UHGV virus genome: UHGV-0213557
From: a virus
Length of the DNA stretch: 56,702 nucleotides
Reading direction: 5' to 3' (one strand)
The notes below the pieces were generated by a model. It saw only the letters and a list, made by a program, of their open reading frames with translations, ran no database searches and was not told the origin of the DNA. Shown here piece by piece: positions 37,141-38,548 of this stretch. How positions within the stretch are numbered: position 1 is the first letter of the stretch; every line of letters starts with the position of its first letter. Both the position numbers and the translations under genes were made by a program.

Positions 37141-37257
37141 TATTTGTAAAAAAATATAGTTTGTCAATATAACTTTATTGAAAAATATGGAAATAAATAT
37201 CGCTTTTGCCGGTTCGGCATATTATAATATAAATATAGAAAGGGGGTGAAAAGGAAA

Positions 37258-37386
37258 ATGAGTAGAATAGAAAGAAGAAAAAAAGATAGAGAAAGCAAAC
37301 TCGCCAAAGTTAAAACTGCTCTCTCTATCTTACCCATTTTAATAAATTTAATTGATAAACTAATTAAATTATTAAAAGATTTATAG
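37258..37386 (+). CDS. Small peptide (42 aa: basic N-terminus, amphipathic/hydrophobic C-terminus)
   Basis: AAAGGGGGTGA RBS; MSRIERRKKDRESKLAKVKTALSILPILINLIDKLIKLLKDL; hairpin ctaggaagaa..ttcttcctag follows. Confidence 0.4.
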   Translation: MSRIERRKKDRESKLAKVKTALSILPILINLIDKLIKLLKDL

Positions 37387-37462
37387 TTTTGTAAGCTAGG
37401 AAGAATTTAATCTTCTTCCTAGTGACTTCTTTCTAAATATTATAACACATTTTCTATAAAAT

Positions 37463-37630
37463 ATGAGTGATAAAGTTTATAAATTCTGTCTTATTATAGT
37501 TGCTATAACTATAGTAATAGACATAATACTTTTATTTTTACATTTTAATATCAACAATATAATAGGATTAATAGTAAGCATTTTATTGTTAATATTTGTT
37601 ACATTACAATATAAAAAAGGAGGAAAATAG
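37463..37630 (+). CDS. Small two-TM membrane protein (55 aa)
   Basis: MSDKVYKFCLIIVAITIVIDIILLFLHFNINNIIGLIVSILLLIFVTLQYKKGGK. Confidence 0.4.
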   Translation: MSDKVYKFCLIIVAITIVIDIILLFLHFNINNIIGLIVSILLLIFVTLQYKKGGK

Positions 37631-37631
37631 T

Positions 37632-37808
37632 TTGGAGCAAAAAGAATCTAAAATAGTTTACAGTAAAGGTGGTTCAGGTACTTATTCGGCTAAAATTTCT
37701 TTACCTTTAAGCCAACTTGAAAAAATGGGATTTACAAGGGAAAAACGTAAGGCTGTAGTTATTTTTAAGGAAGATGAGATTATAATAAAAAAATCTGATG
37801 AGGAATAA
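37632..37808 (+). CDS. AbrB/MazE-like swapped-hairpin small protein (TTG start after AAGGAGG)
   Basis: ..SKGGSGTYSAKISLPLSQLEKMGFTREKRKAVVIFKEDEIIIKK.. Confidence 0.45.
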   Translation: MEQKESKIVYSKGGSGTYSAKISLPLSQLEKMGFTREKRKAVVIFKEDEIIIKKSDEE

Positions 37809-37998
37809 CTCTAAAATAAGTGGGTGTATAATGTAAACATCCACTTATTTTTATTATATTTTGTATTTTATATTAATATATTTTATAGCTTTATTGAAAA
37901 ATATGGAATATTTATTGACTTTCACGTCACGTGATGATATAATATAAATATAGAAAGGAGGTAAGAAAATAAAAAACTTAGAAGGGAGGACAAAGAAA

Positions 37999-38127
37999 GT
38001 GGGGAGATTAGAAAGAAGAAAAAATAAAAGAGAAAACAAATTTAATAAAATTAAAAATGCTTTCTCTTTCACATTAGTTTTAATTAATCTAGTACTCGCA
38101 ATACTAAGATTGATTAAAGAATTATAA
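37999..38127 (+). CDS. Small peptide paralog (42 aa, GTG start)
   Basis: VGRLERRKNKRENKFNKIKNAFSFTLVLINLVLAILRLIKEL; promoter TTGACT-N17-TATAAT at ~37905-37933 with palindrome TCACGTCACGTGA in the spacer. Confidence 0.4.
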   Translation: MGRLERRKNKRENKFNKIKNAFSFTLVLINLVLAILRLIKEL

Positions 38128-38203
38128 GTTTCAATCCTAGGAGGAAAATACCTTCCTTCTAGGTAGCTTCTTTCTAATATTATAACACATTTTCTAATTT
38201 AAT

Positions 38204-38359
38204 ATGAATAATAAATTTTATAGAATTTGTATGATTATTCTTGGTATCACTATAGTTTTAAATATTATTAATATAATAATAAGTTTTACTTTTAAAGCTC
38301 TTATTGCTTTGGTATTTACTTTATTATTGCTGGCATTTATTAATAGTAGAAAGGAATGA
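38204..38359 (+). CDS. Small two-TM membrane protein paralog (51 aa)
   Basis: MNNKFYRICMIILGITIVLNIINIIISFTFKALIALVFTLLLLAFINSRKE. Confidence 0.4.
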   Translation: MNNKFYRICMIILGITIVLNIINIIISFTFKALIALVFTLLLLAFINSRKE

Positions 38360-38364
38360 TATTA

Positions 38365-38541
38365 TTGGAACAAAGAAAACTTAGAGTTGCATTCAATAAA
38401 AGTGGCAAAGGCTCTTTTACACCCAGATTGATACTTCCAATGTCATGGATTAAAGAGATGAATATCTCTCCTGATGAAAGGGATGTTCTTGTTACTTTTG
38501 AGGATGGAAAAATAATTATTGAAAAAACTGAAAATGAATAA
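38365..38541 (+). CDS. AbrB/MazE-like small protein paralog
   Basis: ..NKSGKGSFTPRLILPMSWIKEMNISPDERDVLVTFEDGKIIIEK.. Confidence 0.45.
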   Translation: MEQRKLRVAFNKSGKGSFTPRLILPMSWIKEMNISPDERDVLVTFEDGKIIIEKTENE

Positions 38542-38548
38542 AAAAGGA

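Follow-up and report, generated by a model that had tools for sequence, protein, structure and literature searches.

Two tandem cassettes in a Clostridioides difficile phage combine a candidate toxin peptide, a predicted antisense RNA, and a putative AbrB-fold repressor

The virus genome UHGV-0213557, analysed here as one stretch of 56,702 nucleotides (nt) that we call the window, is that of a Clostridioides difficile phage or prophage. At positions 37140-38577 it carries two terminator-bounded cassettes in tandem, each made up of a promoter with a palindrome, an open reading frame (ORF) for a short peptide, a hairpin, an ORF for a protein with two transmembrane (TM) segments, and an ORF for a protein of the AbrB/MazE fold. 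The question that this locus raises is what such an assembly does for the phage and how its small genes are controlled. A first-pass annotation, made from the sequence alone, had already described this anatomy, which we recovered in both copies where it had been placed, and had likened the cassettes to a toxin-antitoxin (TA) or an abortive-infection/superinfection-exclusion device. A TA-like or addiction role is indeed the best-fitting reading of our results, whereas abortive infection or superinfection exclusion is neither favoured nor disfavoured; PADLOC returned no hit. We see about an even chance that each cassette is a type I-like toxin/antisense module to which a protein repressor and another membrane protein have been added, forming an autonomous, self-repressed type of addiction module in phages and plasmids of the Peptostreptococcaceae. 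The strongest signals lie in an RNA layer that had previously been overlooked, consisting of a convergent promoter, an antisense-specific terminator, and a fold-back of the peptide mRNA.

For the comparisons below we assembled 53 cassette copies from 36 sources, among which the C. difficile members form four types, A to D. The window combines type A (cassette 1) with type B (cassette 2), and the ORFs of its two cassettes are as follows (lengths in amino acids, aa):

37258..37386, plus strand: peptide 1, 42 aa, MSRIERRKKDRESKLAKVKTALSILPILINLIDKLIKLLKDL; ATG start behind GGGGGTG; charged N-terminus and C-terminal TM/amphipathic helix; candidate toxin
37463..37630, plus strand: two-TM protein 1, 55 aa; no Shine-Dalgarno sequence; stops 1 nt before the AbrB-like start
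37632..37808, plus strand: putative repressor 1, 58 aa; TTG start behind AAGGAGG; loop GGSGTYSAK
37999..38127, plus strand: peptide 2, 42 aa, GTG start, MGRLERRKNKRENKFNKIKNAFSFTLVLINLVLAILRLIKEL
38204..38359, plus strand: two-TM protein 2, 51 aa; no Shine-Dalgarno sequence
38365..38541, plus strand: putative repressor 2, 58 aa from its TTG; an alternative start, the ATG at 38356, shares an ATGA with the two-TM stop; loop SGKGSFTPR

Predicted antisense RNA

When types A to D are compared, conservation in 20-nt windows peaks in a non-coding block at 37421-37450 (0.80-0.85) and in codons 2-11 of the peptide (0.75-0.80), while the coding sequences of the two-TM and AbrB-like proteins reach 0.2-0.45. 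Read on the minus strand, the non-coding block contains an extended -10 element, which is TGTGTTATAAT or, in type D, TATGTTATAAT, with weaker forms in other genera. The two strands of the window, 113 kb in all, have 10 occurrences of its pattern, TRTGnTATAAT, of which two belong to the cassettes and five to the flanks of two homologues of type I toxins described below. Promoters of the form TGnTATAAT account for 245 mapped transcription start sites in C. difficile, mostly without a -35 element (PMC7438776). The sense and antisense -10 boxes of the cassettes lie 220-250 bp apart, and the elements that we predict on the antisense strand are the following:

37439..37449, minus strand: antisense promoter 1, TGTGT-TATAAT (TRTGnTATAAT), inside the most conserved block
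38179..38189, minus strand: antisense promoter 2, TGTGT-TATAAT; a -35-like TTCATA overlaps the two-TM start codon
37278..37432, minus strand: predicted antisense RNA 1, ~155 nt, with approximate ends placed from promoter and terminator
38020..38172, minus strand: predicted antisense RNA 2, ~150 nt, with approximate ends placed in the same way
37263..37329, minus strand: predicted antisense terminator 1, a mid-ORF hairpin (37285-37329) plus a U-tract (complement of 37263-37284); antisense -22.3 versus sense -18.0 kcal/mol
38008..38069, minus strand: predicted antisense terminator 2, a hairpin (38027-38069) plus a U-tract; antisense -20.1 versus sense -10.1 kcal/mol

In all eight lineages folded, the predicted antisense RNA forms a 5' hairpin followed by a second hairpin and a long U-tract, the latter being the complement of the Lys/Arg/Glu/Asn codons 3-11 of the peptide. 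In each of 11 variants, the mid-ORF hairpin gains 4-10 kcal/mol of stability in the antisense over the sense orientation, and RNAalifold, applied to nine antisense sequences, recovered the structure with seven compensatory pairs and many G.U pairs that become A.C mismatches if read on the sense strand. This antisense-favoured stability is indirect evidence, independent of the promoter motif, for an antisense transcript and a selected terminator. Selection on this terminator would also account for how little the peptide gene diverges at synonymous sites, its synonymous rate being below that of its neighbours. Comparison between lineages thus shows the minus-strand promoter motif and terminator to be recurrent predicted elements, from which we infer that the antisense RNA is transcribed. 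At ~150 nt, its predicted size is comparable to that of the short forms of the RCd antitoxins, which measure 134-140 nt (PMC5961336).

Predicted fold-back of the peptide mRNA

Each peptide ORF is followed by a stem-loop and, beyond it, by a segment complementary to the start of the same ORF:

37396..37422, plus strand: post-ORF stem-loop 1, 11 bp; predicted leaky sense terminator/3' stabiliser
38136..38163, plus strand: post-ORF stem-loop 2, 11 bp, with one G.U pair in the sense orientation
37268..37277, plus strand: predicted fold-back 5' arm of cassette 1, TAGAAAGAAG, codons 4-7
37426..37435, plus strand: predicted fold-back 3' arm of cassette 1, CTTCTTTCTA, within the most conserved block
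38007..38018, plus strand: predicted fold-back 5' arm of cassette 2, ATTAGAAAGAAG, +8 to +19 of the peptide ORF
38167..38178, plus strand: predicted fold-back 3' arm of cassette 2, CTTCTTTCTAAT, the other half of the conserved block

The post-ORF hairpin is more stable in the sense orientation in 10 of 11 variants, and its stem of 11-12 bp is kept across genera with wholly different sequences. With the hairpin boundaries fixed, we scored the pairing of the flanking arms against genome windows and composition-matched shuffles. The arms of cassette 1 (37268-37277 and 37426-37435) are perfect complements (P=0.003 for genome windows, 0.008 for shuffles), as are the 12-nt arms of cassette 2 (38007-38018 and 38167-38178; P=0.0006 and 0.0004, respectively). 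Terrisporobacter muris (AAGAAACAAAAG with CTTTTGTTTCTT) and the T. mayombei plasmid pTM2 (AAAGAAATAAATCCAA with TTGGATTTATTTCTTT) have arms at the same positions as C. difficile, with unrelated sequences that again form perfect complements of 10-16 nt (P <=0.008 against composition-matched shuffles). In the T. mayombei group, a further arm, whose sequence is GCCATTTCTT or, with a G.U pair, TGTCATTTCTT, pairs with -6 to +5 and lies upstream of the antisense promoter; it falls outside the predicted antisense RNA and would therefore be present solely in the sense read-through transcript. Together with a G.U pair in lineage L064, this arm assigns the pairing to the sense transcript. Comparison across lineages thus shows a predicted fold-back that would mask the translation start of the peptide, which on computational grounds is the kind of self-limiting structure known from toxin mRNAs.

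The number of Shine-Dalgarno boxes in front of the peptide varies with an insertion/deletion of 26-30 nt in the 5' untranslated region (37229-37257 versus 37944-37998, and also in the 1078 cassette of L005). Type A and a variant of type B have one box, and types B, C, and D and T. muris have two, the first of which has no start codon after it. This first box might serve as a standby site or a decoy, or else as another partner for the CUUCUUUCU arm.

The putative AbrB-fold repressor and its operator

The swapped-hairpin AbrB/MazE/SpoVT fold that the earlier annotation had proposed for the third protein was borne out by AlphaFold2 (AF2) and Foldseek. Both the window protein AbrB1 (pLDDT 84.6) and a Terrisporobacter homologue, P0042 (pLDDT 88.3), were modelled as beta-beta-alpha-beta-beta, with MazE, AbrB-N, VapB, SpoVT, and C56/C68 as the top structural matches (TM-scores 0.5-0.65). 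At the sequence level, C68 of pSSVx is matched by the family profile at E=0.008, and AbrB gives a weak match. The gathering threshold of PF04014 in Pfam was not reached, with AbrB2 scoring 20.2 bits against a cut-off of 24.7 (E=5.8e-4) and AbrB1 giving no match, and six of eight family members match this MazE_antitoxin domain weakly (best E=1e-4). The family comprises 104 proteins by word-index search and ~1,000 cluster representatives by HMMER, and it shares the signature segment FNKSGSGSYTP(R/K)xxLP; its alignment favours the MEQRKL start for repressor 2.

That this protein might act as the antitoxin, as the first-pass annotation had implied, is not supported. It consists of the ~58-aa DNA-binding domain alone and stops ~5 residues past the last strand, without the C-terminal toxin-binding tail of MazE or VapB. 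In L040 and L046, family members also occur by themselves, again behind an operator of this kind, and tandem fusions of 120 aa on conjugative elements lie directly behind a promoter with the same kind of palindrome. The missing tail and the stand-alone occurrence argue for a dedicated autorepressor and against a proteic antitoxin, and there is good comparative evidence that the predicted repressor is specific for its own operator. That evidence comes from the promoters:

37207..37219: putative operator 1 (type A), TGCCGGTTCGGCA, located in the promoter spacer; palindrome of 5-3-5 layout, TGCCG-GTT-CGGCA; one occurrence in the window against 0.02 expected
37223..37228, plus strand: sense -10 TATAAT of cassette 1, with a poor -35; aligns with its counterparts in cassette 2, type C, and type D; conservation 0.70
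37915..37943, plus strand: sense promoter of cassette 2, TTGACT-N17-TATAAT plus TG; 11/12 matches
37922..37934: putative operator 2 (type B), TCACGTCACGTGA, TCACG-TCA-CGTGA in the promoter spacer; unique in the window

The sigma-A-type promoter that had been proposed for each cassette is thus present, if with a weak -35 in cassette 1, and so is the palindrome seen in the spacer of the second. By chance, 0.02-0.06 matches to each palindrome would be expected in the 56.7-kb window, and one of each was found. Every Peptostreptococcaceae-type member has one CG-cored palindrome, TNACG-N3-CGTNA, in its cognate promoter, against a background of 0.06 per 420 nt. The second position of the half-site tracks a residue in the beta1-beta2 loop of the AbrB-like protein:

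Loop S-G-S: half-site TGACG; five lineages
Loop N-G-Y: half-site TTACG; three lineages
Loop K/R-G-S: half-site TCACG; C. difficile type B and the unrelated L066 (twice, independently)
Loop GGSGTYSAK (divergent): half-site TGCCG; C. difficile type A

L059 and L061, which have near-identical peptides, have switched loops and correspondingly switched operators. Such differences in operator specificity would explain why co-resident cassettes are always of different types. We dismissed the promoter palindrome as a terminator, since it has a stem of only 5 bp and no U-tract on either strand.

Several relatives of the repressor occur in other settings. A sister branch (L032, L052, L053, L057, L071, L105) has repressors of 71 or 58 aa with a 'YYY' motif, and here a conserved, soluble, basic peptide of 38-42 aa (e.g., MLRRLIKKLVASRQTNKRVQSNRKQIALILKGLEYRGC) replaces the membrane peptide. 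The remote members L032, L052, L053, and L057 have no TM ORF and retain promoter, hairpin, and repressor, with a minus-strand -10 seen only in L032/L052; the operator of L053 consists of two direct repeats, TACGTGTCGAA, in and just past the promoter. In L040-L042, a metagenomic conjugative element with genes for a type IV secretion system and ParA, two-domain proteins of 120 aa are expressed from TTGACGTCACGTC...TATAAT, with no peptide or TM ORF. One library representative, P0120 (1495 aa), has 12 matched stretches of the AbrB-like domain.

The peptide and the two-TM protein

The first gene product is always 42 aa long in the C. difficile types and 39-51 aa overall. Its first 20 residues carry a net charge of +5 to +7, its C-terminal 19-aa Kyte-Doolittle window scores 1.8-2.7, and the hydrophobic moment rises to 0.61 in the type A peptide. 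It is thus a small (<~60 aa), hydrophobic, membrane-targeted peptide such as type I TA systems encode, a feature conserved in nine lineages.

Wherever this peptide with a charged N-terminus and a hydrophobic C-terminus is found, it is accompanied by an ATG-initiated hydrophobic ORF that starts 68-86 nt after the peptide stop, and encodes 25-55 aa that form one or two TM segments; in most cases, 0-12 nt separate its end from the repressor gene. In C. difficile, this second ORF has two hydrophobic peaks and encodes 51, 53, or 55 aa, and in Terrisporobacter it is reduced to 25-33 aa. A point on which the earlier annotation was silent is that the ORF lacks a Shine-Dalgarno sequence in every lineage. 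A leaderless start for it and a plus-strand promoter in the conserved block were both considered and dismissed, as no two hexamers in the block are suitably spaced.

Comparisons at moderate divergence gave pN/pS values of 0.09-0.27 (peptide), 0.10-0.54 (two-TM protein), and 0.12-0.19 (AbrB-like protein), and all three ORFs are therefore coding and under purifying selection; their length and frame are held across the four cassette types. In PHROGs they correspond to phrog_5134 (peptide 2, E=7e-26), phrog_11497 ('membrane protein'), and phrog_2329, none of which has a known function. Neither the peptides nor the two-TM proteins matched Pfam, PADLOC, or NCBIfam, and PADLOC found no defence system in the cassette apart from a chance-level '2TM effector' (E=0.15). 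Single-sequence searches of a set of 5.8 billion proteins returned near-identical proteins only, and finding relatives required a family profile.

Distribution of the cassettes

As the first-pass annotation had anticipated, the cassette is conserved in related phages, recurring in C. difficile phages and phage-plasmids and also in Terrisporobacter elements. Over positions 37100-38600, phage CD2301 has the same sequence (100% identity) and phiCD24-1, another carrier of two cassettes, is 88% identical. Shorter matches extend to C. difficile phages (at least 24 records) and to plasmids (21 records). Of the latter, 19 are C. difficile plasmids of 32-42 kb, the size of phage-plasmids, and the remaining two are short, marginal matches. 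Further copies are present in IMG/VR contigs and in Terrisporobacter elements that include pTM2. The three gene products are presently 'hypothetical' or, as in the CD2301 record, unannotated; the phiCD24-1 record calls them 'conserved proteins of unknown function' and that of phiCDKH02 recognizes one as an AbrB/MazE/SpoVT protein. We found no mention of the cassette in the literature searched, including the descriptions of phiCDKH01 and CDHS-1.

Cassettes occur in arrays of one to three units, and a specificity type is never repeated within an array (L005 and L007 from IMG/VR, L001 from phiCD24-1, and L015-L018). Types A and D are combined in phiCD24-1, and other contigs carry B+D or A+B+D. 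Our end-to-end alignment of the two window cassettes, a comparison that the earlier annotation had called for, showed them to be colinear, with protein identities of 48% (peptide), 37% (two-TM), and 31% (AbrB-like). Its description of the array as duplicated with divergence therefore needs amending: divergence is clear, and a simple local duplication does not fit, as distinct cassette types combine differently among phages. The second cassette of phiCD24-1 is a recombinant in which a type B-like peptide is joined to a type D two-TM protein and a type D repressor, and its junction lies within the conserved antisense-promoter block.

A single type C cassette is found in phiCD38-2-like and phiMMP04-like phages, where it immediately precedes parA and lies ~450 bp downstream of the type I toxin gp33. 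The cassette thus adjoins parA and a known type I TA system in the episomal phiCD38-2, and in Terrisporobacter phage-plasmids it lies directly downstream of ParM-like genes. In the 8.2-kb pTM2 (L045), a direct repeat of ~30 nt, AAAAAGTAAATTAATTTCCGTAAAA, at 2586-2616 and 3229-3259 brackets the cassette and precedes a second, more distant AbrB-like gene ~440 nt downstream.

Relation to known systems

The cassettes share several features with the C. difficile type I TA systems CD0956.2/RCd10, CD0977.1/RCd11, and CD2517.1/RCd8. The peptide is small (<60 aa) with a single TM segment and a charged tail, strong extended -10 promoters lie on both strands 220-330 bp apart, an antisense RNA of ~150 nt (here predicted) accompanies a structured toxin mRNA that hides the ribosome-binding region, and the location is in prophages or plasmids beside partition genes. 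Unlike these systems, the cassettes have the peptide as the first product of a three-gene operon with a second membrane mini-protein and a sequence-specific repressor, and their antisense terminator is built from the N-terminal codons of the peptide itself. Nor does the peptide belong to the toxin family of CD0956.2, CD0977.1, and CD0904.1 (Maikova 2018; Peltier 2020), in which a hydrophobic N-terminus precedes a Lys-rich C-terminus; the cassette peptide has the reverse arrangement and shows no similarity to them. Members of both families are neighbours in phiCD38-2, where gp33 is a CD0956.2-family toxin and gp32 the cassette peptide. The window itself contains two homologues of validated C. 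difficile type I toxins, both on the minus strand, at 4124-4228 (34 aa, MIGFLLSILAGVISAYIYDKIKNHPDANKGDLKK) and 4569-4739 (containing MNNFLLNVIAGVIASLIFCLICKVFLKVKSHSTRGKSKSGWEFDFKIKFHKFK), so this phage carries a known type I TA family as well as the new cassettes. Convergent TRTGnTATAAT elements surround them (minus 4329/plus 4049, minus 4830/plus 4499, and also minus 4017), the pairs being 280-330 bp apart.

Beyond C. difficile, the type I TA systems txpA/RatA and bsrG/SR4 of Bacillus subtilis are examples from Firmicutes prophages with convergent antisense RNAs that overlap at the 3' end. In hok/sok of plasmid R1 and aapA/IsoA of Helicobacter, long-distance pairing between the 5' and 3' ends locks the translation-initiation region of the toxin mRNA and is kept by covariation. 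The cassettes resemble the latter two in their covarying fold-back over the translation-initiation region of a membrane-peptide mRNA. They differ in the position of the 5' arm (codons 3-9, or -6 to +5 in some lineages), in having no mok-like leader ORF, and in the unrelated organisms involved; moreover, their 3' arm lies just past the terminator hairpin, so it would be complete solely in read-through transcripts, unlike that of hok/sok or aapA/IsoA.

The third protein is closest in sequence to C68 (PDB 3o27), from the Sulfolobus virus-plasmid pSSVx, and closest in fold to MazE and AbrB-N. Like C68, C56, and AbrB-N, it is a domain of only ~58 aa with a beta-beta-alpha-beta-beta order and a GxSG-type loop before the second strand, and like other AbrB/MazE/SpoVT relatives it is encoded on mobile elements and is a predicted repressor of its own promoter. 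Unlike them, it scores below the PF04014 gathering threshold, has its own signature segment, and is predicted to recognize a short TNACG-N3-CGTNA operator through a code that can be read from one loop position. The cassettes do not fit the MazE/PemI/VapB type II pattern, as there is no C-terminal extension and no MazF, PIN, or Doc gene alongside. They are also distinct from SymE, an SOS-controlled protein of ~110 aa with the 5'-overlapping SymR; matches to PF08845 are weak and stem from the shared fold, the AbrB-like protein is half as long, and the predicted antisense RNA overlaps the peptide gene and not the AbrB-like gene. In omega-epsilon-zeta and paaR2-paaA2-parE2, a separate small repressor, not the antitoxin, controls the operon promoter. 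The cassettes share this dedicated repressor, but those systems have enzyme toxins, protein antitoxins, a repressor that is encoded first, and no antisense RNA. To our knowledge, no characterised type I system joins a toxin, a second membrane protein, and a sequence-specific repressor in one operon.

Proposed mechanism and alternatives

We propose that the sigma-A promoter with its 5-3-5 palindrome would be recognised by the last-encoded AbrB-fold protein through the beta1-beta2 loop, leading to autorepression, and that co-resident cassettes would have different repressor specificities that do not cross-react. The first gene, a tail-anchored membrane peptide behind a strong Shine-Dalgarno sequence, would behave as a type I toxin gene. 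In its mRNA, the segment 3' of the leaky terminator hairpin would pair with the translation-initiation region in a hok-like fold-back, and the convergent promoter would give rise to an antisense RNA of ~150 nt that pairs with the 3' two-thirds of the mRNA and causes its block or destruction. The peptide would therefore be held by three locks (operator-specific autorepression, start-region fold-back, and convergent antisense RNA), and any peptide escaping them would be toxic to the membrane. Our guess for the two-TM protein, with its one or two TM segments and no Shine-Dalgarno sequence, is that it modulates or counteracts the peptide within the membrane. The pay-off may be stabilisation of the prophage or phage-plasmid, or else the killing of infected cells; the elements that carry the module depend on being maintained.

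More tentatively, and with somewhat less than even confidence, we suggest that the cassettes are a hitherto unrecognised class of stackable addiction modules that combine the fold-back, an antisense RNA of ~150 nt whose terminator would be dual-coded by the Lys/Arg-rich N-terminus of the toxin, and a minimal AbrB-fold lock. One loop residue would set the operator (S with G, N with T, and K/R with C at half-site position 2), so that up to three orthogonal cassettes per phage could coexist without cross-talk, and parts would be exchanged through recombination at the antisense-promoter block.

Several observations weigh against a toxin/antisense module. The polarity of the peptide is opposite to that of the validated C. 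difficile type I toxins, to which it has no sequence similarity, and we know of no characterised type I system with a last-encoded repressor behind a terminator hairpin or a second ORF devoid of a Shine-Dalgarno sequence. The fold-back is weak under the strict test in L062, L064, and L066, and the minus-strand -10 lacks the TG extension in T. mayombei and in L062/L064. Covariation counts are small because there are only ~4 C. difficile types and ~4 outgroup lineages. A generic terminator scan did not flag the antisense terminator, owing to its long loop and GC-poor stem. Finally, the phiCD24-1 recombinant of a type B peptide with a type D two-TM protein makes tight specificity between these two partners unlikely.

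The main rival casts the cassette as an autoregulated moron operon whose two small membrane proteins are non-toxic and serve, for instance, superinfection exclusion, receptor masking, or another form of lysogenic conversion. The AbrB-like protein would then set a low constitutive level of expression, the RNA features would concern only mRNA stability or attenuation, and the minus-strand -10 would be silent or do no more than dampen expression by transcriptional interference. The position between int/attP and the lysis module is classical for morons, the cassettes have their own promoter and terminators and lie beside a conversion-type cell-wall-binding/LRR (leucine-rich repeat) gene, PHROGs places the two-TM protein in the category 'moron, auxiliary metabolic gene and host takeover', and no toxin or defence family was matched. 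We nevertheless think this unlikely, since it leaves unexplained the covarying fold-back that would mask the start of the first peptide, the upkeep of an antisense-only hairpin and U-tract within an ORF, and the co-travel with partition genes and a known type I TA system on episomal phages and small plasmids.

An improbable alternative is a leaderless membrane-active bacteriocin or lysis-helper peptide with a two-TM immunity protein and an AbrB-type regulator, which the lysogen would use against non-lysogens. The cationic nature and amphipathic/hydrophobic helix of peptide 1 (with the hydrophobic moment noted for type A), the usual immunity-gene site taken by a small TM protein immediately downstream, and the presence of a dedicated regulator all agree with this. 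Yet no exporter or processing gene was found in or beside any cassette, the mixed-charge N-terminus of 20 residues is shaped by RNA constraints, the candidate immunity ORF has no ribosome-binding site and shrinks to 25-33 aa in Terrisporobacter, and antisense plus fold-back control is typical of intracellular toxins.

Also very improbable is a type II-like TA system in which the AbrB/MazE-like protein would neutralise a small membrane protein, as the first-pass annotation had implied. Its MazE/VapB-type fold, the antitoxins among its nearest structural matches, and its place at the end of a compact, translationally coupled operon would suit such a role. Against this stand the end of the protein ~5 residues past the last strand, its stand-alone (L040, L046) or tandemly fused relatives, partners that are integral membrane peptides with no MazF, PIN, or Doc gene in any cassette, and a variable loop that tracks the DNA site. 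That the AbrB-like protein is a centromere-binding or partition-operon regulator and the small ORFs incidental is hardly credible in spite of the parA and ParM-like neighbours in phiCD38-2 and the Terrisporobacter phage-plasmids, because the window phage is integrative with no par genes adjoining the array, each cassette has a single palindrome inside its own promoter and no iterated centromere repeats, and the small ORFs are under purifying selection.

If the toxin/antisense reading holds, its consequences would be practical as well. All C. difficile phages are temperate, and the way they are maintained sets limits to phage therapy and to the curing of strains. Another toxin-type module in these phages, widespread and unrelated to the known one, would add to explaining the stability of prophages and phage-plasmids and offer new counter-selectable markers, a use to which the known type I TA systems of C. 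difficile phages have already been put (PMC7699646). The repressor/operator pairs (58 aa and 13 bp) would be compact, naturally orthogonal, and governed by a readable code, making them useful for synthetic regulation in Clostridia, and the dual coding of peptide N-terminus and antisense terminator would be a clean case of RNA constraint moulding a protein sequence. Whether the cassette is in fact a modular, undescribed relative of the TA systems that keep phages and plasmids in their hosts is, on our estimate, evenly balanced.

Boundaries and neighbouring genes

The integrase gene flanks the array on one side and a convergent LRR/cell-wall-binding gene on the other, and the lysis genes come after the LRR gene; the earlier annotation had placed the array between attP and the latter, which it called cwp-like. 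Its boundaries are set by the following features:

35635-36765: integrase gene, flanking the array
37106..37135, plus strand: intrinsic terminator before cassette 1, a 12-bp stem then ATTTTTATTT; insulates cassette 1 from int/attP
37818..37853, plus strand: cassette 1 terminator, a 10-bp stem AAGTGGGTGT/ACATCCACTT then ATTTTTATT, read off the sequence
38546..38577: bidirectional terminator common to cassette 2 and the convergent cell-wall-binding/LRR gene

Because of these three terminators (37106-37135, 37818-37853, and 38546-38577), each cassette is its own transcription unit. The convergent gene (38582-40981, minus strand) encodes a secreted protein of 799 aa with leucine-rich repeats and C-terminal cell-wall-binding repeats, which looks like a lysogenic-conversion surface protein. 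Searches of both strands of 36000-39500 against Rfam gave chance-level matches only, and no tRNA was found in the window. Minus-strand ORFs opposite the peptide genes (37164-37337 and 37854-38072) were dismissed, as their starts and lengths vary by type and no ribosome-binding site precedes them; a complement free of stops is what Lys/Arg/Glu codons would be expected to give, and we do not take these ORFs for genes. Upstream of both promoters (37168-37197 and 37882-37912) lies a block, CTTTATTGAAAAATATGGAA, that is conserved between types A and B and might act as an UP element or as an additional binding site; its type B version forms an AT-rich palindrome, AAATAT-GGA-ATATTT, immediately 5' of the -35.

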